A stretch of DNA of 29,924 nt from a virus (taxonomy: Duplodnaviria > Caudoviricetes), in the IMG/VR virus record IMGVR_UViG_3300037863_000154, positions 1-29,924 of that record, one strand, 5' to 3'. Each line of letters starts with the position of its first letter. Within the stretch, counting starts at the first letter, position 1. Below, in pieces: positions 7,080-29,924 of this stretch. Both the position numbers and the translations under genes were made by a program. The notes below the pieces were generated by a model. The model saw only the letters and a list, made by a program, of their open reading frames with translations, did no database searches and was not told the origin of the DNA.

Positions 7080-7304
7080 GTGTTTATCAAATCTTTAGAA
7101 GAAATGGAATCAATTGTTAGTCTAGACAAGTCTCTTAGGTGGGACGGCTGGACAGTTATTCATACTAAATTTAATCCAATGGCGTGGAAAAACACTAATG
7201 GGATTATATCTAATGGCAAGTGGTATACGGCAACCCGCTACGAGCCCACCAGCAACGGCTGGGACCTACCTAAGAAAATGGTCAATAACAGTGGACAAGC
7301 ATGA
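7080..7304 (+). CDS. Hypothetical protein
   Basis: 74-aa ORF within a tightly packed operon. Confidence 0.6.
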   Translation: MFIKSLEEMESIVSLDKSLRWDGWTVIHTKFNPMAWKNTNGIISNGKWYTATRYEPTSNGWDLPKKMVNNSGQA

Positions 7305-7587
7305 GTGGAAAGATAGGGCAGCCTGTCTGGGGTTTGACACAAACATTTTCTTTGATAAGTACGAAGAAGAGGAAGCCTTTCGTCCGGGCATAGACTCAAT
7401 ATGCCACTCCTGTCCAGTAATAAAGCAATGCTTTGCTGTAGGGATTTCTCAAAAAGAATGGGGAGTCTGGGGAGGAATATACCTTGAAAACGGTAAAATT
7501 TCTCGTGAATTTAGCAAGCACAGAAGTAAGGAAGATTGGGCAGAATCATGGAAGGCCCTCACAATGGATAAGAAAGAAACAAGATAA
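7291..7587 (+). CDS. whiB: WhiB-family Fe-S transcription factor
   Basis: W...AAC, IFF, CxxCPV...C and GVWGG motifs (four Cys). Probable GTG start at 7291. Confidence 0.93.
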   Translation: MDKHEWKDRAACLGFDTNIFFDKYEEEEAFRPGIDSICHSCPVIKQCFAVGISQKEWGVWGGIYLENGKISREFSKHRSKEDWAESWKALTMDKKETR

Positions 7588-18938: not shown

Positions 18939-19121
18939 ATGAAAAGAAAACATAGAACCGAGAACAAAATGCTTAGAGCTTGGGGCAACTCCTGTGGATG
19001 GGTAGCCGATCTGTTTCTTAGCCATGCAGTTAAGTATGGTGATTATTACGAGTGGGAAGACATTAACAAGTGGTTGGACGAAAACAACGACGAAATTTTT
19101 CTTAAAGCTCCGCGAAAATAA
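18939..19121 (+). CDS. Hypothetical protein
   Basis: 60-aa ORF. Confidence 0.5.
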   Translation: MKRKHRTENKMLRAWGNSCGWVADLFLSHAVKYGDYYEWEDINKWLDENNDEIFLKAPRK

Positions 19122-19197
19122 GATTTTAAAGTTCGGCGATAATAGAGAAACCACACTCGACACGAGTGATAACCCAGATAGGCGAAATATTGTGGGC

Positions 19198-19356
19198 ATG
19201 AGAGCACATCCTAGAGAGCATGGAACTCTTAAAGGATATAAACAACACGAGAGGCTAAAAGAAAAATATTGTCGTCCGTGTTTAAATGCAATGTGCTTAA
19301 GGGTGCAAAAATCTTGGGGGATCAGGAAGCAGAGCACAATTCCCTATAGTACATAA
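19198..19356 (+). CDS. Small His/Cys zinc-binding protein
   Basis: HGTLKGYKQH...CRPC motif of a type seen in actinophages. Confidence 0.55.
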   Translation: MRAHPREHGTLKGYKQHERLKEKYCRPCLNAMCLRVQKSWGIRKQSTIPYST

Positions 19357-19444
19357 TACCCTATAAGAAAGAAACCCTATAGGGGGATATACCTGATATG
19401 GGGATAGCCTGTGTGGCGAAAACCTTATACCCCGCAAGAAAATA

Positions 19445-19481
19445 TACTCCATTTTACTCCATTTTACTCCATTTTACTCCA
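19445..19481 (+). repeat. Tandem repeat (TACTCCATTT) x3.7
   Basis: Read directly from the sequence. Confidence 0.95.
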
Positions 19482-19499
19482 AATACGTCTTACTCACAC

Positions 19500-19520
19500 T
19501 GTGGATAACGCTGTGGATAA
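19500..19520 (-). promoter_or_regulatory. Two DnaA boxes
   Basis: TGTGGATAA at 19500-19508 and 19512-19520. Confidence 0.7.
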
Positions 19521-20314
19521 GTATTGGAAAAAGATATATGGGTATTGGAACACCCTCCTATAGCCCTTCGTAATCATTTTAAAACTATAATATCCCCATA
19601 TATCTGTGGGATTTTTTTCAAAGGGTTCGTAATGTGTTATATCAGGGATATCTGGTGTTATATGTATAGGGATATAGAGAGAAATGTTTGTTTTTGATCA
19701 TACAAATTCCCCTCAAAAATATCTAAATATACATAATAAAATAAACAAACATATCCTTTTTATTTAAAAATCCAGGGAAAAGATTAATAAACTATAACCA
19801 ACATATAGAGCATTATGTTCTATGTACTATAGGGGATAATGGGTACTTATCTTATACCCAAAAAACTTTGTGGCATTTTTTTTGAAGGGTTCTTAATACT
19901 ATTTATCCCTGGGCTTTATAAGATGCCATGCAGCAAAGCATAGTATAAGTGTTACGATCAGTATTGATTCCATATAGGATAAGTATACCTTATAACTTGT
20001 GGCATTTTAAAAGCTTCTTCGTAATACCTTTTAATAAAACTAACATTCATCATACCCATGGCGCTGCGCGCAAAAAAATCAAGGCATTGAGCAGATCCTA
20101 TGATATAACAAAATGTAATAGAGTGATTGTATATGGGAAACATACTAATACCTTGATACATATAGTATACCCCAAAACTTGTAGGATATCAAGTGTAGGG
20201 TTCTTAATAAAAGCTGTGCGATTTTTTATAAAGGGTTCATAAAGGTTTTTATTTGAATTGAATTGAATGTAACGGAATGATAACGGAATGCGCGCATAGC
20301 GTGCGCGCACCGAT

Positions 20315-20334
20315 CCCACCCCTTTCGAGGTGGG
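20315..20334 (-). terminator. GC-rich stem-loop ending the leftward block
   Basis: CCCACC-N8-GGTGGG, just after the stop codon at 20342. Confidence 0.5.
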
Positions 20335-20341
20335 TGCGGTA

Positions 20342-20602
20342 CTAAATTAGTTTTTCGAAATCGTCAAAACTCTCAAAGGGTTCTCTGTCATCTTCTACCT
20401 CAAGGGCCTTCATTAGCAAATCCCAAGTTTCATTTATGAAGTGAGTGCCCTTCTCAGTTGGCTCTGACATATTCTGAAATATCAAATAAGCGAGTGGCAA
20501 TCCTAAATCATTGTACGAAATAAAATCAGCGAGCGATTCTTCTTGTTTGTATCCAAACCAAAGCTCACCAAGAATCTCGCACCTGATATCAAACGGTGTC
20601 AT
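20342..20602 (-). CDS. Hypothetical phage protein
   Basis: CEILGELW..YNDLGLPLAY..INETW motif. Confidence 0.75.
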   Translation of the reverse strand: MTPFDIRCEILGELWFGYKQEESLADFISYNDLGLPLAYLIFQNMSEPTEKGTHFINETWDLLMKALEVEDDREPFESFDDFEKLI

Positions 20603-20835
20603 TTCCAGGGTTCTCCCATTCTGTGTAGTCTTTCATAGTGTGCGTTTCTGTCTGTTTTTGCGTTGTGGCTATCAATCGCAGAATGGAATATGTGTTCGAA
20701 TCTAAGGAAATCAGCCTTCCTAGCGAACTGAACAAAATACAATCCAATCAGGTCTAGGTCTAGCCTAATGTCAGAAATCAAGTCCACAATTTTTAGAGCA
20801 ACCTTTTCTTCATCTGTTAGTTTTTGTTTAGCCAT
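20599..20835 (-). CDS. Hypothetical protein
   Basis: ATGA overlap with the next gene. TGCTATAAT upstream. Confidence 0.7.
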   Translation of the reverse strand: MAKQKLTDEEKVALKIVDLISDIRLDLDLIGLYFVQFARKADFLRFEHIFHSAIDSHNAKTDRNAHYERLHRMGEPWK

Positions 20836-20894
20836 TATTTCCCATTATAGCAGTCGAATAAGTTTTTGTAAAGCACCAGTTCAGGTTACACCGA

Positions 20895-21293
20895 TTAGTG
20901 AATATCAGTATGTTGTCCGATAAAGCTACCGGTACCGTATGGATATTGTTGACACACAATGTCATACTCCGGCAGGGCAAGAAGATGTTCTCTAATCCTG
21001 TCTGGTATCTCTTTATAGGTTGAAATGAAACTATCTCTACAAGTCCAGAAGTTTTTCTCTGTTGACAGTCCAAGTGTTAGCACTTCGTCTTCACCTTCTT
21101 CGAGGAACAAAGTTAGGTCATCATTTTTTTCACCTGTTCCGAATCCTGTAAAGCTCCAATGAGATTCATCATCTGACCACTCTGAGTTTATCTTATAGAA
21201 ATCAACCCTCCAGCCACCCAGTAACTCTCCGGATGTTTTTTGATAAAGTTCATCCCAAATGTTGAGGTCATAGTTGTTTATTGTAAGTTTCAT
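20895..21293 (-). CDS. Hypothetical protein, paralog of 21302-21682
   Basis: NYDLNIWD and TYKEIPDR motifs. Leaderless, after TATAAT. Confidence 0.7.
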   Translation of the reverse strand: MKLTINNYDLNIWDELYQKTSGELLGGWRVDFYKINSEWSDDESHWSFTGFGTGEKNDDLTLFLEEGEDEVLTLGLSTEKNFWTCRDSFISTYKEIPDRIREHLLALPEYDIVCQQYPYGTGSFIGQHTDIH

Positions 21294-21301
21294 ATTACCT
21301 A

Positions 21302-21682
21302 TTATACCGCGACTTCGCCATATGGCAAAACTGATTGCTCATATGCAGGCAAGGCCCAAAGTAGATTGGCTACCCGCTCAGGAATGTCCCTGTAGGTGTG
21401 AAAGAATGTATCTTTGTCTAACCAGAAATCTTTATCTGGTGCGTAGTCTCCACCTAGGTCAGTACCCCAGCCAAGTGTAATCCTCTTGGATTCTGTCGGG
21501 GTAAGAGTAATAGTTTCTTTATAGTCACCACTACCATATGGAGAGCCTACAGCAGGATAGCTATAGACTTCAATCGACCATCCTTCTTCTTGATACTCAG
21601 TTTCATACCCTCGCCTATCCCAAATGTTCAGGTCATAGTTCTCGGTCATCACTGCGTTGTTCAAACTAATTTTATTAGACAT
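21302..21682 (-). CDS. Hypothetical protein, paralog of 20895-21293
   Basis: NYDLNIWD and TYRDIPER motifs. Confidence 0.7.
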   Translation of the reverse strand: MSNKISLNNAVMTENYDLNIWDRRGYETEYQEEGWSIEVYSYPAVGSPYGSGDYKETITLTPTESKRITLGWGTDLGGDYAPDKDFWLDKDTFFHTYRDIPERVANLLWALPAYEQSVLPYGEVAV

Positions 21683-22073
21683 TTACTTTGACTCCCATTC
21701 CATATTCGGCAAGGTACATATCTCTAGGATACACGATATCAGTGTGTGTCACAAATCCCCCAGCCTTATCCCACTTCTCTTCCATGATGTCAATTTGTTT
21801 AGTTACATAGTTATAGATAGGGACGTCATACCCGTCGCCTGTTACTGATAGTTTGTTGATAGACATGCCTACCCCAGTTTCTTTATCCCAATCAGAATCA
21901 ATGACTCTTGAAACAAAGATACGTGTAAAGTATGATTCATCACCATCACGAGGCATAGCGTATGCTATAGCATTCGCAACGGTAGTGTGCCTATCTTCTC
22001 CACCCCAATGTAAGTAAAGATAAATAGTGTTACCATCGCTACCCTTGATTCCGACTGACGCACGGTCTCCCAT
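21675..22073 (-). CDS. Hypothetical phage protein
   Basis: MGDRA...IYLYLHWGG and DESYFTRI motifs. Confidence 0.75.
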   Translation of the reverse strand: MGDRASVGIKGSDGNTIYLYLHWGGEDRHTTVANAIAYAMPRDGDESYFTRIFVSRVIDSDWDKETGVGMSINKLSVTGDGYDVPIYNYVTKQIDIMEEKWDKAGGFVTHTDIVYPRDMYLAEYGMGVKVNV

Positions 22074-22189
22074 TATTTTGCCTCTCCAAATATGTCTGTT
22101 AGTTTTTGTAATTGTTCGGGGGCAAGGTTGTCAATGACATCCATACCATAGTCTAATACATCTTCCATTGCTTTTTCGAATTCATTCAT
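22073..22189 (-). CDS. 38-aa hypothetical protein
   Basis: MNEFEKAMEDV..., leaderless from the motif promoter at 22208. Confidence 0.6.
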   Translation of the reverse strand: MNEFEKAMEDVLDYGMDVIDNLAPEQLQKLTDIFGEAK

Positions 22190-22233
22190 AGCTATACCTT
22201 ATCACCTACCACTGACATTACCGTTTCCAAATA

Positions 22234-22344
22234 CTAATAGTCATGGCTCCAATAATAAGCATCGGAACAAGCAAGACACATACCTAGCTCTTCCTCGTGG
22301 ATATCCGAATCGATCGGGGTATCACAATGGATACAAGCCTTCAT
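22234..22344 (-). CDS. 36-aa zinc-finger peptide
   Basis: MKACIHCDT...MCLACSD. Confidence 0.55.
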   Translation of the reverse strand: MKACIHCDTPIDSDIHEEELGMCLACSDAYYWSHDY

Positions 22345-22512
22345 TCTTTTACCTTCCTGGGGTCAATACCACTTGATACCATTACCTCAAACAATACTGC
22401 CGCATACTCTTCATCCATAGTTATACCCCACCCCTCCACATCTTACTAATAATAAAACTAACTAACAAGATAGCAATCCCAATCGGGTAGCCGCTATTCA
22501 AGAAACTCTCCA

Positions 22513-22689
22513 CTACAGAATCTCCATCTCAATAGCGGGGCGGATATCACTAAAGCGTAAATCAATTACATCATCTAGCATTACATCTGTAAAATAGTTT
22601 ACTAACTCATTACCCTCAAGCCCTTCGGCGTATGGGTCATCTTTGATAACATACTCAAAAGCAATTACGCCTCTAGCGATTCTACTCAT
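22513..22689 (-). CDS. 58-aa hypothetical protein
   Basis: MSRIARGVIAFEY... RBS AAGGAG, downstream of the motif promoter at 22728. Confidence 0.65.
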   Translation of the reverse strand: MSRIARGVIAFEYVIKDDPYAEGLEGNELVNYFTDVMLDDVIDLRFSDIRPAIEMEIL

Positions 22690-22930
22690 TACTCTCTCCT
22701 TTTAGTATTTCTTCTAGTGTAGCAAGAACCACTGACACTGTAAATGAAGAGGGCATCCGGTCTAATTCAGGTTGTGCCCTAACATTCTTAAGTATCCTAA
22801 GACATTCATTGATTCCATCGTCATAACCGCTATCATATAATGCGGAGTCATCTCCATCCTTCCATTCTTGCCAATCTTCATAAAATCGATCTTCATATAC
22901 TTCATCCCCCACTCTAGTAACTTGGGTCAT
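22682..22930 (-). CDS. Hypothetical acidic protein
   Basis: 82-aa ORF. Confidence 0.55.
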   Translation of the reverse strand: MTQVTRVGDEVYEDRFYEDWQEWKDGDDSALYDSGYDDGINECLRILKNVRAQPELDRMPSSFTVSVVLATLEEILKGESNE

Positions 22931-23207
22931 TGCTCACCACCGTATCAATGTCTGTCCAGGGGTTCGAGGTAACATAGAAACCCAGCCTGTTGAAATACCT
23001 AATACCAGGCAAGACATCTGCGTAAACACTGTTAGGGTTATTATCTACAACAGTCCACACATACTTGATGGAGTCTTGCGAATTCCCAGCGGTATCCATA
23101 GCGTCTTCCAAAAAGGAATAGATATCTCCAATGGGGATATACTTCTCTTCCCACTCTTTATAACTAATTACAATCTCTTCACCGAATGGCACTTTCCTTC
23201 TCCTCAT
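22914..23207 (-). CDS. Hypothetical phage protein
   Basis: VWTVVD...PGIRYFNRLGFYVT..PW motif. Confidence 0.7.
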   Translation of the reverse strand: MRRRKVPFGEEIVISYKEWEEKYIPIGDIYSFLEDAMDTAGNSQDSIKYVWTVVDNNPNSVYADVLPGIRYFNRLGFYVTSNPWTDIDTVVSNDPSY

Positions 23208-23312
23208 CTAAGTCAATAATATAAACATCTACATCATCGGGGGCAGAGACAATATGGGCAACTCCACCCAATACCTCTATATAGACTTCTCGTCTTTCGG
23301 CAGCCTGAACAG

Positions 23313-23477
23313 TCATCGAAAGTCATCCTCAATCTTAGCAATCAAATGAGAATATACTTCATACATGGCCTCCAACTCTTGATAGTCTCTAGAATGATAG
23401 CCTACAGCCATCATCTCATTGGAGAGTTCGTTCTTCCTTACATCAAGGTATTCTAGAATTGCGTTTATTTTGTCCAT
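23313..23477 (-). CDS. 54-aa hypothetical protein
   Basis: MDKINAILEYLD..., leaderless from TTGACA-N17-TATAGT (23484-23512). Confidence 0.6.
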   Translation of the reverse strand: MDKINAILEYLDVRKNELSNEMMAVGYHSRDYQELEAMYEVYSHLIAKIEDDFR

Positions 23478-23619
23478 ATAAAAACTATACCAGCGACCAC
23501 TGACACTGTCAATAAAAACGTGGGAGTTTTTTGATGCTGTTCTTAAAGGTTGTTAGTAGAGTAATTATGTTATTATACAATATGACGGAATATCGGTGCG
23601 CGCACACCCCCGAGGGAGT

Positions 23620-23646
23620 GGGCAGTTTAGAGTCATGCCTAGGACT
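23620..23646 (-). ncRNA. H-type pseudoknot motif, copy 1
   Basis: AGTC-CTAGGCAT-GACT-CTAAAC-TGCCC. Confidence 0.65.
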
Positions 23647-23654
23647 ATGAGGGC

Positions 23655-24662
23655 TTACACCGATGTCAGCTGTTTGACAATTCCGTTCAGCCTGTTTTTC
23701 TCGGCGTTGATGACTGGGTCAAAGCCACTAGCACCAGCCAACACAGATTCGTTGTTGCCCTTACGACCTGAGCGGTACCAGTCAAGGCGTTCGGTCATGG
23801 CGTTCAAAGCACCCCAAGCCGTACCAGCAATGGTGTGATTGAATTGTCCGGTGTAGATATCTTCAATCAGTTCCACCTTAGTGTTCCACTTGGATACCGC
23901 ACCCTTTTTGTCTTCTTCAGGGCGAGGGTATGCCTTGAGCACAATCTCCATGAACTTATCCTGAGTAATCTGAGTTTCAATCATAGCCTTAGCCACGAGG
24001 TCAAACTCATCCATGTAAGCGTTAGCCAAGCCAAGAGCCTCACGAGCCGCCTGGATTTTACCGTTAGCCGTTTGGGTGTGACGAATCTTGTAGGACTGTT
24101 TTACGGTACGGTTACGACCAACACCGCTACCAAGAGCAAGGTTCAGAGTGTTAGCACACACTACCCGCACAGGGGTGACGCTAGCCTGAATAGCGATAGA
24201 GCCATCGTGAGAGGTGTTCACCAACAGGTAGGAGTTGATTTTATCTTCAACACCTGAAGGGTCGAGCACCGTTTCACGCTCAAGAGCGAGAGAGCCAAAG
24301 ACCTGCCGACCACCCTTGATAGAGCCAGCCGTTTCCCAACGACCACCACCGTCTAGCAGGGCATCTCCAAAGTCAAACAATTCTTCGTTTTGAAGAATGC
24401 GGTAACGCTCACCAACGACACCAAGAATGTCTGTCTGCTTTTTGTCAAATGGGTTAGTTCGAGCGACATAGTTGTACACCTTGTCAGAGGCAAAGCCATC
24501 AGGGGTAACAACTTCTTCAAGGCGAACATTCCAATCCTGAAGGTTAGCCAACTCCAACATTTCTGAGGTAGACACTTCTTCCTGAAATACAGTGCCAAGA
24601 CCATGCCAGGCAGGTTGACGGTATGAGGCGAATGATTTATCTGATTCTAGTTCGTGAGCCAT
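23655..24662 (-). CDS. DUF932-family (phage/plasmid-like) protein
   Basis: PAWHGLG, LGVVGERYRILQN, WETAGSIKGGRQVF, NTSHDGS, TPVRVVCANTL, IRHT and GTAWGALNA motifs. Confidence 0.9.
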   Translation of the reverse strand: MAHELESDKSFASYRQPAWHGLGTVFQEEVSTSEMLELANLQDWNVRLEEVVTPDGFASDKVYNYVARTNPFDKKQTDILGVVGERYRILQNEELFDFGDALLDGGGRWETAGSIKGGRQVFGSLALERETVLDPSGVEDKINSYLLVNTSHDGSIAIQASVTPVRVVCANTLNLALGSGVGRNRTVKQSYKIRHTQTANGKIQAAREALGLANAYMDEFDLVAKAMIETQITQDKFMEIVLKAYPRPEEDKKGAVSKWNTKVELIEDIYTGQFNHTIAGTAWGALNAMTERLDWYRSGRKGNNESVLAGASGFDPVINAEKNRLNGIVKQLTSV

Positions 24663-24810
24663 GAGGTTCACCTTTCGTTAGGGGATTTATTTGCTTACTA
24701 AACTAACTATACACCCGACCACTGACACTGTCAAGGTAATTCAGCATCTTCGTAAACTAAGTTATAGTTTTGTTATATCAAAAATCGTGCGCGCACATTT
24801 TATGTTGATG

Positions 24811-24841
24811 TGAGCAGTTTACGATCGACATGCTCAGGTCG
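24811..24841 (-). ncRNA. H-type pseudoknot motif, copy 2
   Basis: CGAC-CTGAGCAT-GTCG-ATCGTAAAC-TGCTCA. Confidence 0.7.
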
Positions 24842-24862
24842 TTTTCTCCCCCCAGAGAAAAT

Positions 24863-25036
24863 CTAGGAAATCAAAAGGACATCATCCGGGATATACCCCA
24901 TGTCCTTTATCTGCACGACAAAGTCTGTTTCTTCAATGTAGTCATAGTTACCAAACTTAGCTTTAGCCTCATCTGCATCCATGGCCCATACAGTGTATGT
25001 CTTGTATTCTGTTACGTGGAATTCTTTTAGTTTCAT
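24863..25036 (-). CDS. Hypothetical protein
   Basis: Start MKLKEF, TGATG-coupled to the previous gene. Confidence 0.6.
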   Translation of the reverse strand: MKLKEFHVTEYKTYTVWAMDADEAKAKFGNYDYIEETDFVVQIKDMGYIPDDVLLIS

Positions 25037-25230
25037 CAGACTACCTCTACCCATTCCATAGTTGTAACTAGCAATTGATTATAATCACCAGATTTTGCTT
25101 CCTTCAGATACAAGGCCTGCTCTTCTTTGTCGACGCCCGCTCTTCGCATAGCTCTGGTCACCGCTCCCATAATTGAGAATGCGTTACCATCAATGCTAGT
25201 TAGGTCCACCGCGATATCGTATTTTGCCAT
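25036..25230 (-). CDS. Conserved phage hypothetical protein
   Basis: DGNAFSIMGAV..AMRRAG...SGDYNQLL motif. Confidence 0.75.
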   Translation of the reverse strand: MAKYDIAVDLTSIDGNAFSIMGAVTRAMRRAGVDKEEQALYLKEAKSGDYNQLLVTTMEWVEVV

Positions 25231-25231
25231 T

Positions 25232-25750
25232 TTACTCTCCACTTCCTCTAACCATAATCCAGATTAGTGCTTGCGTTGTACGGGGGGTAAGCCCAAACTT
25301 GTTGGACACTGTTTTGATTGCTTCAGTTACCTCAGTATACTGTGTTTTGTTAGGGCTGTCAACTCCATAACCGGCTGCCCTCATAATCCATACATCAACA
25401 ACTACAGCATTTTCGTCACCAGCGATTGCTCTGGCAAAGGCATTTGTTTTTGGTCCTCGTAATGCTTCATATCCCAAGACCTTGCTTGCCTCTGCCATTT
25501 TCAGGTTATTCGATAATCCTGTTACTGGCTTGCCTAGTGAGAAATGGATAGCCTTTGTGACATTGCTTGTCCATCGTTCTCTAGGTGAGAATGCGGACAC
25601 AACACTAGCACCTACCTCAAGGCTAGACTCTAGGTTTTCTGCTACCTTGTGGGCAACCTTTTCTGCTTCAAAATACCACTTAGCCGATTGCTCAATTTGG
25701 CCAGGGGTAGCGTCTTCGACATAAGACTGAAATGTCTGTACCAGATTCAT
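25232..25750 (-). CDS. Helix-hairpin-helix DNA-glycosylase-like phage protein
   Basis: WY, SAFSPRERW..N, GPKTNAF, AVVVDVWIMRAA and QALIW pattern resembling the HhH-GPD fold. Confidence 0.55.
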   Translation of the reverse strand: MNLVQTFQSYVEDATPGQIEQSAKWYFEAEKVAHKVAENLESSLEVGASVVSAFSPRERWTSNVTKAIHFSLGKPVTGLSNNLKMAEASKVLGYEALRGPKTNAFARAIAGDENAVVVDVWIMRAAGYGVDSPNKTQYTEVTEAIKTVSNKFGLTPRTTQALIWIMVRGSGE

Positions 25751-25867
25751 ATTAGTTCTTTCTCTAGGGGGGGTTGATATATTTATATCATAGCAGGTAC
25801 CACTGACACTGTCTGCCCGACACGCCGTAGAGAGTAAAAAATGCGCGCACTTCGATCACCCTCTCGG

Positions 25868-25970
25868 GGGGCAGTTTATCCACTATACCTTCTACCCAGG
25901 TGAGGCTCCAATCGTCACTCAGGCTCGCCGCTTCCCGAGGAATAGGATAGTTTAGACACATACCCAGGTG
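25868..25970 (-). ncRNA. H-type pseudoknot motif, copies 3 and 4
   Basis: CAC-CTGGGTAT-GTG-TCTAAAC-TATCC (25945-25970) and CAC-CTGGGTA-insert-GTG-GATAAAC-TGCCC (25868-25902). Confidence 0.6.
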
Positions 25971-25980
25971 CTTCCTCCCC

Positions 25981-26430
25981 TTAGAGGATTTCTACAATTG
26001 CCCCATAGGTTGAGGCATTGACTTCTTCTTGTGTGGTCAGTTTCAGGATACGGAGATTTTTCTCCAGCAGTGATTTCTGAGTGACATACTCACGACCAAA
26101 CGACTCTTTTTGATTTGGGGCTACTGGTGCTTCTGGTCGCTTAGGAAAGTCAGTAATTGCTGAGGGGTCAAAGGTTACTTCTACCCTTCCACGATAACTG
26201 TCGTTGATACGAATAACGCTGTCGTAGTCGTACCCAATCTTTTTGATATTCTTTACAAGATAGTCAGACATAAAGTTAGCAACATTCTTTTTGTATGCTT
26301 CTGTGTCTTTATCAAACTGGGCACGCCTTGCGGGGTAGTCCTCAATATCTTTGTCAATCTGAGCCAACTTAGACTCAATCTGCTCAATGATAGCGATAGT
26401 GGGAACTTTGACAGAGATGTTTCTTGCCAT
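25981..26430 (-). CDS. Hypothetical protein
   Basis: 149-aa ORF with RBS AAGGAA and the motif promoter at 26484. Confidence 0.8.
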   Translation of the reverse strand: MARNISVKVPTIAIIEQIESKLAQIDKDIEDYPARRAQFDKDTEAYKKNVANFMSDYLVKNIKKIGYDYDSVIRINDSYRGRVEVTFDPSAITDFPKRPEAPVAPNQKESFGREYVTQKSLLEKNLRILKLTTQEEVNASTYGAIVEIL

Positions 26431-26501
26431 TTTATTATTCCTTCTTTTAGGGGGGATTTGCTTACTATGTAACTATAACACGAACCTCTGACATAGAGGT
26501 G

Positions 26502-26535
26502 TGTGGGGGTAGGTTATGGAATGCCTACCCCCACA
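26502..26535 (-). terminator. Stem-loop
   Basis: TGTGGGGGTAGG-N10-CCTACCCCCACA. Confidence 0.65.
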
Positions 26536-26544
26536 AGAGTTAGA

Positions 26545-26691
26545 CTACTTTACAGTAGTCCAACGGTCTTGACCATCAACGGTCAAGAGGACTCGGCTAG
26601 TGCCGTTAGAGTTCTGGACGATTTCCTGAACAATGCCAGTAACGCCAGACTTCTGAGTCGTGAACTGTGAGCCAACAGTGATGTTTTCCAT
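26545..26691 (-). CDS. 48-aa small beta-barrel-like protein
   Basis: MENITVGSQFTTQKSGVTGIVQEI...RWTTVK. RBS AAGGAAG and upstream TTGACA-N17-GATACT. Confidence 0.7.
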   Translation of the reverse strand: MENITVGSQFTTQKSGVTGIVQEIVQNSNGTSRVLLTVDGQDRWTTVK

Positions 26692-26853
26692 ATTTGCTTC
26701 CTTGCTTTATTTACCAGGCGATTTGCTTGATAAATCAAGTATCCCATAGATTATGCCTGGTGTCAAGTCCAAAACGGTAACGATTTGGACAAAGTTTTCT
26801 AAAGTTTATTGTAGGAATCCTACAGCCCGTGCGCGCACCCCGATCACCCCCCC

Positions 26854-27186
26854 CTAAGAGAGGACGTCCAGGGCTTGAGAGTTAGCACAATCCCAGATAG
26901 CAATTTGCCTAAACCCTCTACCAACTAGCAAGGCTTCATCTTTATCTCTAATGTGATAAGACCTGTCAATATAATACACTTCTTTATTTTGCCAGACACC
27001 CACTACCTCTCCATCTTCTATGTCCATTAGTTGTAGGGCAGAGATAGTTCCTTGTGCGTCTAGTTCTCCGTGTACGGATACCCCAGTTTCATCAGACACC
27101 CAATAGCCATCAGTCATATTGATTTGACTTGTGAGCATTGGGATACCCTCAGCGTCAAGGCGAACGGTATAAGTTCCGTCTTTCAT
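26854..27186 (-). CDS. Hypothetical phage protein
   Basis: VGVW...YID..ALLVGR..RQIAIWD motif. Confidence 0.7.
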   Translation of the reverse strand: MKDGTYTVRLDAEGIPMLTSQINMTDGYWVSDETGVSVHGELDAQGTISALQLMDIEDGEVVGVWQNKEVYYIDRSYHIRDKDEALLVGRGFRQIAIWDCANSQALDVLS

Positions 27187-27329
27187 TTGCTCATCAACAG
27201 TCTGGTTACATCAACAACTTTGATAGCGTCTGTATGAGTAACTAGGTATTCTGCCGTTTTTAGATTTTGGCAAGGCTTCAGGCTACCGTCGGGGTATTCG
27301 ACATACCAGGTGTCAATTAGATAAGTCAT
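27183..27329 (-). CDS. Hypothetical protein
   Basis: Start MTYLIDTW, coupled to neighbours on both sides. Confidence 0.6.
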   Translation of the reverse strand: MTYLIDTWYVEYPDGSLKPCQNLKTAEYLVTHTDAIKVVDVTRLLMSK

Positions 27330-27604
27330 TAGTCTAACTCGCTTTCGATAATCCAGGTTTCTAGGTGGTGTTGCTCTACTATAGCATGAACGGGTGACAC
27401 TGCTTGTCCCTTCCACAATATCCCTTCGGGTAGCGAAACAAGACTATCCCATTCTCCATCATTAGCCAGGTCAATAGCCTCGATACAGGTTGGCACCATA
27501 ATTGCGGGTACGGGTGGATAGTGATTACTAGTCAAGTGAACTAGAATCTGCTCTTCTAGGCTAATACCAATTTCGGTCAGCCCCTCTGCCCACGCTCTTC
27601 CCAT
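27329..27604 (-). CDS. Conserved phage hypothetical protein
   Basis: HLTSNHYPPVP..MVPTCIEAI..AIVEQHHLETW motif. Confidence 0.78.
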   Translation of the reverse strand: MGRAWAEGLTEIGISLEEQILVHLTSNHYPPVPAIMVPTCIEAIDLANDGEWDSLVSLPEGILWKGQAVSPVHAIVEQHHLETWIIESELD

Positions 27605-27729
27605 TAGCCAATCACCTCAATAGGGTCGCCATCCCAGCCATCAAGGACTTCATAGAATTCCCAAGCCGATATAATTCCGTCCTCATAATCCTGTTTTGCT
27701 TCCAATACTGCTTCATTGTCGTAGTACAT
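27604..27729 (-). CDS. 41-aa acidic peptide
   Basis: MYYDNEAVLEAK..., TAATG-coupled on both sides. Confidence 0.6.
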   Translation of the reverse strand: MYYDNEAVLEAKQDYEDGIISAWEFYEVLDGWDGDPIEVIG

Positions 27730-27887
27730 TATTTGCTCTCCTTGCTCTCGTTGATATCTTTATCTTTACTTGCTTGTCGAGTCCTAGACCGTTTGGTGCG
27801 ACTGTCCTCGTGGGGGGTAGTGGCGTTGCTACGCCTTATCTCTCTCATAGCCTCAATATAAGGCTTGTTCTCATTTCCCTTGTTCAT
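27729..27887 (-). CDS. 52-aa basic peptide
   Basis: MNKGNENKPYIEAMREIRRSNATTPH..., leaderless from the motif promoter at 27906. Confidence 0.6.
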   Translation of the reverse strand: MNKGNENKPYIEAMREIRRSNATTPHEDSRTKRSRTRQASKDKDINESKESK

Positions 27888-27984
27888 AACTACAACCTAT
27901 CACTAACCACTGACACTACCTAATTGAAACACGGCGTGTCGTAAAATTAATTATAACATTTTGGTAAACAGGTGCGCGCAGCGC

Positions 27985-28176
27985 CTATGCGCCAGCCAGC
28001 ATTTCCTTCATGTCTTCCTCCCAATGCTCTGCCATAGCGTAGTAGACAGCCTCTTCGTTCATGGCGTCTTCCTCCTGTACACAGGCACCGCACCAGGGCT
28101 CGCCACCGTTGCGACGCTCAAAGTCGGTGGTTGGGTAGTGGCAAATGAAGCAAACCTCAAAATTGTACTCAATCAT
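27985..28176 (-). CDS. Small zinc-finger protein
   Basis: CFIC...CGAC. RBS GAAAGGG and the promoter at 28217. Confidence 0.65.
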   Translation of the reverse strand: MIEYNFEVCFICHYPTTDFERRNGGEPWCGACVQEEDAMNEEAVYYAMAEHWEEDMKEMLAGA

Positions 28177-28357
28177 TAGATGCCCTTTCGTTGTTGATAA
28201 TATAAACATATCATGAACCACTGACACTCACGGCTCAACACGTCGTAAAGTGTAAAAGTTTGTGCGATTTTTTTTGCTATCTTCTTAAATGACTTCGTAA
28301 ATAGATCTGTTACAATTGTTGACCCAAAAAGTTTGCGCGCATATGTCTCGTGCGCGC

Positions 28358-28373
28358 ATGCCCCGAAGGGCAT
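28358..28373 (-). terminator. UUCG-capped stem-loop
   Basis: ATGCCC-TTCG-GGGCAT on the - strand, just after the stop codon at 28378. Confidence 0.55.
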
Positions 28374-28377
28374 ACGA

Positions 28378-28602
28378 CTAGGCTATAGCCACATGGGAGA
28401 GAGCAGATTTTGGTTGGTATTCTACTTTAGGAATATCTATCCCACAAGCCTCAAAGAAACGGGTATTGTCAAAGCGGTCATTATCCTTTTTCATCATCAG
28501 GGCAAAGTCACGAACTAGGTCGAGATATTCCTCAGGTGGCATTACCTCAGCATAGTCGCTAAGGATTTCGGATACGGCTACATAGTCTTTTCTTGTCATC
28601 AT
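28378..28602 (-). CDS. Conserved phage hypothetical protein
   Basis: MTRKDY...DNDRFDNTRFFEACG motif. Confidence 0.78.
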   Translation of the reverse strand: MMTRKDYVAVSEILSDYAEVMPPEEYLDLVRDFALMMKKDNDRFDNTRFFEACGIDIPKVEYQPKSALSHVAIA

Positions 28603-28787
28603 TAGATTAGTTCCTTTTCTTCTAGGTGTGCTCTTACCTCAGTGAGTGCTTGGGTATATAGTCTTTCGATAGTTTCGTCTGACAAGTTAGCGAACATGGT
28701 TCCTACCAGGATATTTACACCATACTCACCAAAAGCCACCTCATAGGCTTGGCGCAATTCTGTAACCGTTGGGTTATATTTATACAT
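28602..28787 (-). CDS. Hypothetical protein
   Basis: Start MYKYNP after RBS GAAAGGA. Confidence 0.65.
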   Translation of the reverse strand: MYKYNPTVTELRQAYEVAFGEYGVNILVGTMFANLSDETIERLYTQALTEVRAHLEEKELI

Positions 28788-29055
28788 TAGTTTTCCTTTC
28801 GTTGTTGTTTTTAGTTTAGCACCTACCACTGACACTAGTTCCATTCCCAGGCGAGCATGCAGATTTCACACTCTAACTGATAGAACTTAGCCAATGGGTT
28901 TTCCGCAAGTGAGGTGAGCATAGCGACATGGAGAGTTTCCTCACCACACTCATCACAGAACTGAGTGACATCTTCCATAGGGGAGAGGGGGAGTGTTACT
29001 GACATTAGTTTTCCTTTCGTTGATGTTTTTATTTTAGCAGGTACCACTGACACTA
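28785..29055 (-). repeat. 53-bp direct repeat of promoter, RBS and ATG
   Basis: 28785-28837 versus 29003-29055, 49/53 identical. Confidence 0.93.
28835..29005 (-). CDS. Small zinc-ribbon protein
   Basis: CDECGEETLH...ECEIC. Confidence 0.7.
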   Translation of the reverse strand: MSVTLPLSPMEDVTQFCDECGEETLHVAMLTSLAENPLAKFYQLECEICMLAWEWN

Positions 29056-29316
29056 AAGGCTAGCCTTAGCCCTTAGTTCAGCATTCTTAGCCCTTAGTTC
29101 AGCATTCCTAGCCCTGTTATAGTCTAGGTAGTCATCACACTTGCTAAACTTGCCTAAGACATTCATTCCGCAATTATCACAACGCAATACCTCACCATCC
29201 ATATCGGTGGAGAAATAGGTGTGAAAGCCCTTGCCCTCGAACTGAGCATTCCAGGCTTCCTCAGCCTCACGTTCCTCTTGGTCAATCAGGGCTAGCAGTT
29301 CATCTTGGTTATACAT
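29053..29316 (-). CDS. Hypothetical protein with CxxC and a duplicated NAELRAK
   Basis: RBS GAAAGGA, promoter at 29353, internal 21-nt repeat. Confidence 0.7.
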   Translation of the reverse strand: MYNQDELLALIDQEEREAEEAWNAQFEGKGFHTYFSTDMDGEVLRCDNCGMNVLGKFSKCDDYLDYNRARNAELRAKNAELRAKASL

Positions 29317-29397
29317 AGTTTTCCTTTCTTTATATAACTAACAATACCATGAACCACTGACATTACCTAACCGACACGCCGTAAACGGCGAAAATAG

Positions 29398-29592
29398 TTA
29401 TCCACAGATTTGAGCTAGTTTACCTTTTACACCCATTCTAGTTTACCTTTTACACCCATTCTAGTTTACCTTTTACACCCATTCTAGTTTACCTTTTACA
29501 CGATTTTTTTGGATCTTCTTAACCTGTTTCTTAAAGTGCTTCGTAAAAGGTTATTGGGGGCAGGGTCAAAAGTTATACACAGGTTATCCACA
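29398..29592 (+). promoter_or_regulatory. Three DnaA boxes
   Basis: TTATCCACA at 29398 and 29584, TTATACACA at 29573. Confidence 0.7.
29415..29501 (+). repeat. Tandem repeat (CTAGTTTACCTTTTACACCCATT) x3.8
   Basis: Perfect 23-bp units at 29415, 29438 and 29461, plus an 18-bp partial unit. Confidence 0.97.
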
Positions 29593-29638
29593 GGCGTGCG
29601 CGCCCGATTTCTCGGGGTATGTCAAACCGACACGCCGA

Positions 29639-29800
29639 CTAGTCTTCCATGTCCTCATATTCGCTAACCCCAATACGATAGGCGATAGGGTCGCACTCTT
29701 TGAGAATCTGCGAGGGGTAGAAAGTCAATTCCCCAATTTTTACAACGGGGTAGCATTCGTCTAACATCTCATCAAACATATCTTCTACTGTGCTAACCAT
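29639..29800 (-). CDS. Conserved phage hypothetical protein (53 aa)
   Basis: FDEMLDECYPVVKIG..YPSQILKECDPIAYR. Confidence 0.7.
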   Translation of the reverse strand: MVSTVEDMFDEMLDECYPVVKIGELTFYPSQILKECDPIAYRIGVSEYEDMED

Positions 29801-29924
29801 TAGGATACCACCTCAAAATCTAGGATTTCACCCTCAGAGATTAGTTGACCATATTTGGCCAACACTGAGGTGCGAGCAAACTCGCTGAATGACTTGATGA
29901 CTTGAGAGCCATCTAGGTTAGTTA
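29800..29924 (-). CDS. Hypothetical protein, 5'-truncated
   Basis: Open frame from the window end, TAATG-coupled to the next gene. Confidence 0.5.
   Translation of the reverse strand, partial: TNLDGSQVIKSFSEFARTSVLAKYGQLISEGEILDFEVVS

Follow-up and report, generated by a model that had tools for sequence, protein, structure and literature searches.

The 29,924-base virus record IMGVR_UViG_3300037863_000154 (the whole stretch is hereafter the window) carries an array of about 30 small genes, which are probably expressed early from 11 predicted promoters shaped like those of PafBC, the activator of the actinobacterial DNA-damage response. A short palindrome, TGCGCGCA, occurs ten times in the window, all within 20065-28358 (chance mean 0.14, max 1), in the position between units that we call the slot. 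Across the clade to which the array belongs the same order recurs, namely stop codon, pseudoknot or hairpin, slot word, AT-rich spacer, TTAMGAA box, optional WhiA box and promoter. The hairpin or pseudoknot is followed closely, on its 3′ side, by the slot, and the spacers around the slot are hypervariable. A preliminary description of this DNA had proposed a repeated punctuation grammar with one palindrome to each promoter. The motifs are real and their order recurs in relatives, but the ratio of slots to promoters is not one to one: the palindromes delimit seven complete intervals for 11 promoter boxes, four of which (29052, 28834, 22737, 22217) lie inside an interval. Features are listed in the table below.

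Eighty viral and 80 metagenomic loci related through DUF932 (the best 80 of 165 and the best 80 of 386) were compared with the window. TGCGCGCA serves as a boundary in none of the 160, its single copy being a chance one in L146, and a pattern search of viral contigs for TGCGCGCA together with the promoter returned six loci, none of them homologous. Homologous slots are occupied by other words, GGGCGCC in L125 and GGGGWCCCC in L129; between the window and these two loci the scored genes are 89-99% identical, the spacers just 36-75%. In 59 of 84 unique loci the slots on the two sides of DUF932 had a common core (null 28.7 +/- 3.6, max 41 of 10,000, a null that does not correct for relatedness between loci). 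On a DUF932 tree of 41 loci with slot words labelled by hand, 23 word changes were counted (minimum 9, shuffled 27.7), and L132, L133 and L134 have almost identical DUF932 genes and three different slot words. Between close relatives one slot word gives way to another at the same position, and it does so at the several slots together. Slot flanks are kept where the cores change, which argues that each slot was altered separately towards the same word, and from this pattern we infer selection by a reader rather than cassette copying. Asymmetric words are found in both orientations, so the site acts as DNA and not as RNA. Phages of Streptomyces cluster BE share the layout, with longer, genus-specific sites confined to spacers; BE1 and BE2 phages propagated on one host bear different longer sites, in 4 and 11 copies, all intergenic.

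Each slot word was scored outside the array in 19 near-whole relatives, and 18 labelled genomes were ranked. A genome's own word was depleted there (mean rank 4.6 of 19, n = 18; null 10.0 +/- 1.1, with 0 of 100,000 permutations as low). A blind ranking put ACGT at the head of the 4-mers for the six genomes with that word, and CCGAG at the head of the 5-mers for the four genomes with CCGAG; neither group is a clade. Array genes are also low in their own word (ACGT 0.39 vs 1.09 per kb), with CCGG as the exception, and CTAG is absent from 6.6 kb of open reading frames (ORFs) in the G020 array against 3.5 per kb in the others. Depletion is graded by the flanks: GACGTC, CACGTC and CACGTG are nearly gone, and NACGTA is kept. 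Within the close clade, with the words GCGCGC, GGCGCC, GGWCC, GCCGGC and CCSGG, GCGC alone reached significance (8 in 46 kb against 62 in 84 kb, p = 0.012). The deamination product ATGT is not raised, which favours selection over decay of methylated cytosine; deamination of 5-methylcytosine was ruled against as the cause, its product not being in excess. Slot words are thus 4-6 bp long and avoided in a lineage-specific manner in relatives, as type II restriction targets are. Separately, some words are totally purged outside the array in particular lineages, GCGC in G002 and G010, TCGA in G003 and G017, GGCC in G006 and G010, and AGCT in most other genomes. These purges are likely a record of host restriction systems.

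The box TGTCAGTGGT is present in 10 exact copies and one with a single mismatch between 22208 and 29362, all on the minus strand; with up to one mismatch allowed, the whole window holds 14 matches vs 2.03 expected. The preliminary description had read TGTCAGTGGT as the promoter itself. It is not the -35 or -10 sequence, but a spacer element 12 nt ahead of a TANNNT -10. A blind count of spacings placed TANNNT 12 nt after TGTC in 745 of 4706 cases (83-291 at any other distance; 205 of 5637 on the opposite strand). The consensus for PafBC promoters is tGTCgg(N10)tA(N3)T (PMC8635444), and by sequence and spacing the array promoter, TGTC-N12-TANNNT, matches the PafBC -26 element. In PafBC (RecA-NDp) promoters, described under sigma adaptation, TGTC stands at -28 to -25, 12 nt ahead of a SigA-type -10, usually without a -35 (PMC8635444, PMC11804915, PMC8223512); the array differs in having 11 copies on a phage, three of them with an additional -35. 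A PafC-type helix-turn-helix protein was found in 5 of 5 genomes chosen for the similarity of their glyA to that of the phage. It is likely, judging by these matches, that host RNA polymerase with PafBC drives transcription of the array.

A second box, CGGCGTGTC, has four exact copies, and by itself this count, taken at the one-mismatch setting, does not exceed chance (4 is reached in 15 of 100 shuffles). It matches the WhiA consensus: CGGCGTGTCG, when reverse-complemented, gives the M. tuberculosis consensus (PMC13473873), and WhiA binding lies upstream of the -35 (PMC10243135). Compared with the WhiA box given there (CGACACGCCG / GACACGCC), the box here is an exact reverse complement just upstream of the -35 position, on a phage that encodes a WhiB, and differs in having only four copies, all predicted sites. 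Among relatives, 52 of the 63 WhiA boxes with a promoter within 52 nt lie 10-11 nt from the promoter box, and 160 of 223 have no promoter within 52 nt. WhiA may perhaps play a role alongside PafBC. As a reader of TGTCAGTGGT it was rejected, because the spacing equals the PafBC consensus and WhiA binds upstream of the -35. No description of phage use of PafBC or WhiA was found among the papers listed by a literature search that covered mainly open-access journals. TTAMGAA is found 25 times vs 11.6 expected, 13 of them on the minus strand at 19567-29546. The spacers gather sites for host cell-cycle regulators: besides DnaA, WhiA and PafBC boxes, an RTAACA-N5-RTAAC direct repeat at 24761-24777 fits the C. 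glutamicum MtrA consensus (PMC3353115), with 110 matches in 162 loci.

Cultured-phage homologues of the DUF932 protein belong to Streptomyces cluster BE, the nearest being Stanwilliamsviridae, and occur two per record near the end. Phages of this cluster (BE1) have direct terminal repeats of ~11 kb (PMC5764925), with the DUF932 homologues located in both repeats. Four-base palindromes are scarce in the array (TGCA 5/32, GATC 11/37, AGCT 12/38, GGCC 7/25, TTAA 13/43) and near parity outside it; in 10 relatives the lowest 5-kb palindrome bins coincide with the promoter block, weakly so in G003, G004 and G007. Contig depth, which is not copy number, gives a weak hint of a repeat: it roughly doubles from ~19,470 in X3, and X1 and X4 also have more of it over the array, but in X2 there is no step at that edge. 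On homology and composition the array thus quite probably belongs to a ~110-kb actinophage with kinship to cluster BE, as its terminal repeat and the part injected first, and the earlier proposal of an early, probably host-takeover region of short self-promoted units agrees with the BE homology and the local loss of palindromes. It has the DUF932 gene in common with the BE1 repeat (PMC5764925), and differs in that BE repeats show little 4-mer depletion, except for GATC in Samisti12. In the terminal repeat of that phage (L081 1-10000) GATC occurs 0 times vs 27 expected, unlike in Karimac and StarPlatinum. TTTACGAA boxes are present in the intergenic or terminal part of Samisti12 and Karimac and absent from the genes of both.

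The first-step-transfer repeat of T5 and BF23 (PMC10644984) resembles the array in its ~10 kb of small genes beside a non-coding end and in its depletion of restriction words. T5 tolerates no sites in first-step DNA, whereas in the array clade one word persists between units; two-step DNA entry, a T5 trait, would be a prediction for the array. At its outer end the array has a short tandem repeat at 19440-19480 with two DnaA-box matches, and at its inner side a 23-bp repeat, also with DnaA boxes. We take these two repeats to resemble the T5 injection-stop region.

The preliminary description held that units can be shuffled through shared boundary motifs, integron-like in logic, which would make TGCGCGCA a recombination site; the boundary word is indeed repeated, and some units have moved. 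Across 51 close loci gene order was largely conserved, with a few moved units (DUF7178 and the 53-aa and 132-aa genes). An indel census covering 143 of 162 loci yielded 25 clustered indels, two pairs of which are possibly the same event. Three had the promoter at both ends (a random end falls near a promoter 4.7% of the time), as with a 218-bp unit at 28838-29055 that is missing in L125, L127 and L129. The other 22 were not promoter-bounded and ended at neither motif; most of them are one ORF long, with ends at overlaps of ribosome sites or of start and stop codons. None of the 25 junctions lies at the slot. Whole promoter-plus-gene units do come and go as had been proposed, but most events involve single genes, and the indel ends show gain and loss through apparent short homology at promoter copies or start/stop overlaps, not at the slot. 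No tyrosine integrase was found in the window, as had been noted, or in five complete relatives. The integron reading fails on indel ends, on a word unshared among relatives and on the integrase search, and the units are self-promoted; we regard a recombination role for TGCGCGCA as very improbable. A joint of 29924 to 29344 as a circle was also rejected, being a further promoter unit past the contig end with nine letters different.

The cassette layout is of a known kind. With promoter-bounded indels, none at the slot and no integrase, the pattern is PeSL-like rather than integron-like. As in the PeSL cassettes of T4-type phages (PMC2839356, PMC4122927), an intergenic stem-loop and a host-sigma promoter precede small genes without assigned function, and indels are bounded by repeated promoters (PMC2839356), in the array in 3 of 25 cases. 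The array is unlike PeSL in belonging to an actinophage, in forming one clustered block, and in its PafBC-type promoter, pseudoknot ends and lineage-switching slot word. PeSL has mini-circles, and none was seen for the array among assembled contigs. The PeSL stem-loop lies upstream as a terminator; the array has hairpins and covarying pseudoknots, which may end its messages. PeSL belongs to the hyperplastic regions of T4-type myoviruses; the relatives of the array do not, being ~110-kb actinophages.

The array has four pseudoknots, and 267 unique copies from relatives show covariation in both stems (stem 1, 232 vs null 151; stem 2, 220 vs null 26). An Rfam search gave no matches at E up to 1. 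In L131, L136, L143, L146 and L005 a tRNA-like gene lies between the pseudoknot and the slot downstream of DUF932; it is missing from the window. The DUF932 and glycosylase-like cargo named in the preliminary description were both recovered, the former by family match (E 6e-50), the latter as a DUF7178 protein. Its model (pLDDT 92.8) has the HhH-GPD DNA glycosylase fold, aligning to 3n0u with Z 12.3 and root-mean-square deviation 3.7 over 164 aligned residues, and enzyme activity is putative. The top 22 rows of the structure search were mostly of the HhH-GPD superfamily, with Foldseek E just 0.06 or worse. K101 and D119 are invariant in 25 sequences and may be the catalytic Lys and Asp, as in Ogg enzymes. 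The "many zinc-finger peptides" were not borne out, with CxxC in only 4 of 29 ORFs; many array ORFs are acidic. The 149-aa protein had neither a family nor a cultured-phage match. The last two array genes fall to 35-47% identity in L126, where their neighbour is 93% identical. The 86-aa product is 23% acidic with a good structure model, and a role as an Ocr-like mimic was unsupported (best structural Z 4.4; viral library best E 0.62).

The window represents a ~28% complete genome and includes genes for ThyX, glutaredoxin, an M23 lysin, an r1t-type holin and WhiB (7198-7587), besides a glyA fragment. A second, weak WhiB-like ORF at 19024-19356 (PHROG E 9e-7) adjoins the probable genome end. All 24 listed runs with the array are salt-lake metagenomes. 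An aquatic actinobacterium is the probable host, since the best glyA matches listed, in a scan of 2 of the 64 parts of the collection, are from Microbacteriaceae (79-81%). The stretch 24-1088 holds the host-like glyA piece (GC 55% vs ~40% elsewhere), then tRNA-Arg (920-1013) and tRNA-Met (1014-1088), and ThyX comes next. Either the phage captured this piece recently from a host of the Microbacteriaceae, or the contig end is chimeric.

Features of the array and its flanks in the window, by position
Position	Strand	Feature	Remark
19450..29924	-	Probable long terminal repeat/first-injected early region	Left edge approximate; runs past contig end
19450..20300		Non-coding, probable genome-end segment	TTAMGAA/A-tract boxes; DnaA-box matches 19500 and 19512; 3 palindromes
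20065..20072		TGCGCGCA slot word	
20289..20309		Two TGCGCGCA slot words	Right after last hairpin
20342..20835	-	Last two array genes, 78 and 86 aa	Fast-evolving; sigmaA-type promoter at 20872
22196..22217	-	PafBC-type promoter	
22716..22744	-	PafBC-type promoter	TTTACA -35
23484..23512	-	PafBC-type promoter	Perfect TTGACA -35
23597..23604		TGCGCGCA slot word	Downstream of DUF932; other words here in relatives
23620..23645	-	3′ pseudoknot	After DUF932
23655..24662	-	DUF932 protein, 335 aa	
24706..24734	-	PafBC-type promoter	Perfect TTGACA -35; ahead of DUF932
24788..24795		TGCGCGCA slot word	Upstream of DUF932 promoter; other words here in relatives
24812..24840	-	3′ pseudoknot	
25232..25750	-	DUF7178 protein, 172 aa	Predicted HhH-GPD (Ogg-like) glycosylase fold; invariant K101 and D119
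25787..25827	-	WhiA-consensus box and PafBC-type promoter	WhiA box 25819-25827
25842..25849		TGCGCGCA slot word	
25869..25970	-	Two 3′ pseudoknots	After 149-aa gene
25981..26430	-	Conserved 149-aa protein	No family
26472..26493	-	PafBC-type promoter	One mismatch
26830..26837		TGCGCGCA slot word	
27894..27940	-	PafBC-type promoter and inverted WhiA-consensus box	WhiA box 27932-27940
27973..27980		TGCGCGCA slot word	
28205..28226	-	PafBC-type promoter	
28334..28358		Two TGCGCGCA slot words	
28813..28834	-	PafBC-type promoter	Right end of 218-bp indel
28838..29055	-	Promoter and 56-aa CxxC ORF (28835-29005)	218-bp unit with ends in repeated promoter
29341..29406	-	DnaA-box match, WhiA-consensus box, PafBC-type promoter	DnaA 29398; WhiA 29373-29381
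29415..29501		23-bp tandem repeat	DnaA-box matches at inner end
29597..29604		Variant slot word GGGCGCGCA	GCGCGC core; then DnaA-box match at 29584

In the host, words of 4-6 bp that differ from strain to strain are read by restriction systems. A host restriction-type enzyme may be what reads the slot word, a reading we hold with slightly more doubt than belief. The first-injected terminal repeat would carry short gene units behind PafBC-type promoters, to be transcribed by host RNA polymerase with PafBC (perhaps also WhiA), each message being ended by a pseudoknot or hairpin. The genes avoid most 4-bp palindromes, and the slot between units would hold a target word of the host restriction type, so that cutting at slots would leave every gene intact. 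Resection of the cut ends could yield single-stranded DNA, a known activator of PafBC (PMC11804915), and in the most speculative step the host restriction attack would thereby switch on the phage early programme. That cleavage at slots ignites the early promoters in this way is unlikely; equally doubtful are its further elements, that the duplicated repeat would be dispensable and that the word would be re-tuned at all boundaries upon a change of host. One of 5 candidate-lineage genomes has a C5 methylase.

Several observations weigh against a host restriction reader and against the ignition step. Restriction of T5-type phages occurs when sites lie in first-injected DNA (PMC10644984), the opposite of a benefit. 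Three of the 18 ranked genomes (G002, G006, G007) lack a low rank for their own word; outside the array depletion is partial (observed/expected 0.1-0.7), being total only in the array genes of G020, and CCGG, CGCG and AGCT are purged to zero (observed/expected 0.00) in many genomes. In the close clade seven other cores were not significant, and one core has a single locus. The window outside the array (18.5 kb) shows no clear depletion, with GCGC 23/28 and CGCG 8/18, like L213 with another word, and two GCGC are still present in its array ORFs. The word labels were author-chosen from slot sequences, some after the blind ranking had been seen, and the G010 word overlaps the G010 promoter motif. 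Some slot words are asymmetric (GCCAGC, CCGAC), and L127, L129 and L130 are mosaic loci with two words. The BE slot is a longer site, and its CCGG/CCSGG core is common in genes, which favours a binding-protein reader, at least in BE phages.

Such a reader, a phage-encoded site-specific DNA-binding protein serving as a transcription roadblock after the hairpin, an insulator or an entry/packaging signal, with drifting specificity and costly stray sites, is possible although rather unlikely. The place of the slot just 3′ of a hairpin or pseudoknot speaks for it, as do the flank-graded depletion, which resembles binding affinity, and the different intergenic sites of BE1 and BE2 phages on one host. 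Against it, none of 93 protein families co-varied outstandingly with the word by whole-protein identity (best z ~2.9) and no discriminating columns tracking it were found in 49, in tests that miss fast-evolving or unaligned genes; array proteins, moreover, share 95-100% identity across relatives that carry three different words. The genes with the best z, the last two of the array, were rejected as readers since their alleles do not follow the word. With no phage gene tracking the word, a host-encoded reader is suggested. A phage-encoded nuclease or nickase cutting the word, in host-DNA degradation, rival exclusion or terminal-repeat recombination, meets the same lack of a co-varying gene (nuclease families were not searched one by one); it would fit the depletion in the phage's own genes, the hypervariable spacers and the mosaic loci, and its probability is low. 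The slot word as a methyltransferase target, an epigenetic mark of the previous host and not a cut site, is improbable too. Most slot cores are classical methylase words, but no C5 methylase was found in 15 relatives, nor N6/N4 or D12 adenine/N4 methylases in five relatives for each family; the 5-methylcytosine deamination product is not in excess, and a mark alone leaves purging from genes unexplained.

DNA that a phage injects first should, by expectation, be cleared of restriction-type words. The aquatic actinophages of this large clade clear them from their early genes and keep one at the unit boundaries, and no paper describing early phage DNA in which restriction sites are retained or enriched in this way was listed in a search of mainly open-access literature. 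The papers listed likewise included none on the pseudoknot or on words that vary between lineages. The boundary word changes at all boundaries together and faster than the neighbouring proteins, pointing to a reader whose specificity switches rapidly. The new elements are a test of word depletion across whole genomes, a census of indels and a search for a phage reader, which was negative. Because the layout is shared by cultured phages of cluster BE, parts of the question are testable in Streptomyces. If the reader is a host restriction enzyme coupled to PafBC-type promoters, the phage would be using a defence system as its trigger, and for uncultured phages the restriction specificity of the host could be predicted from the slot word.

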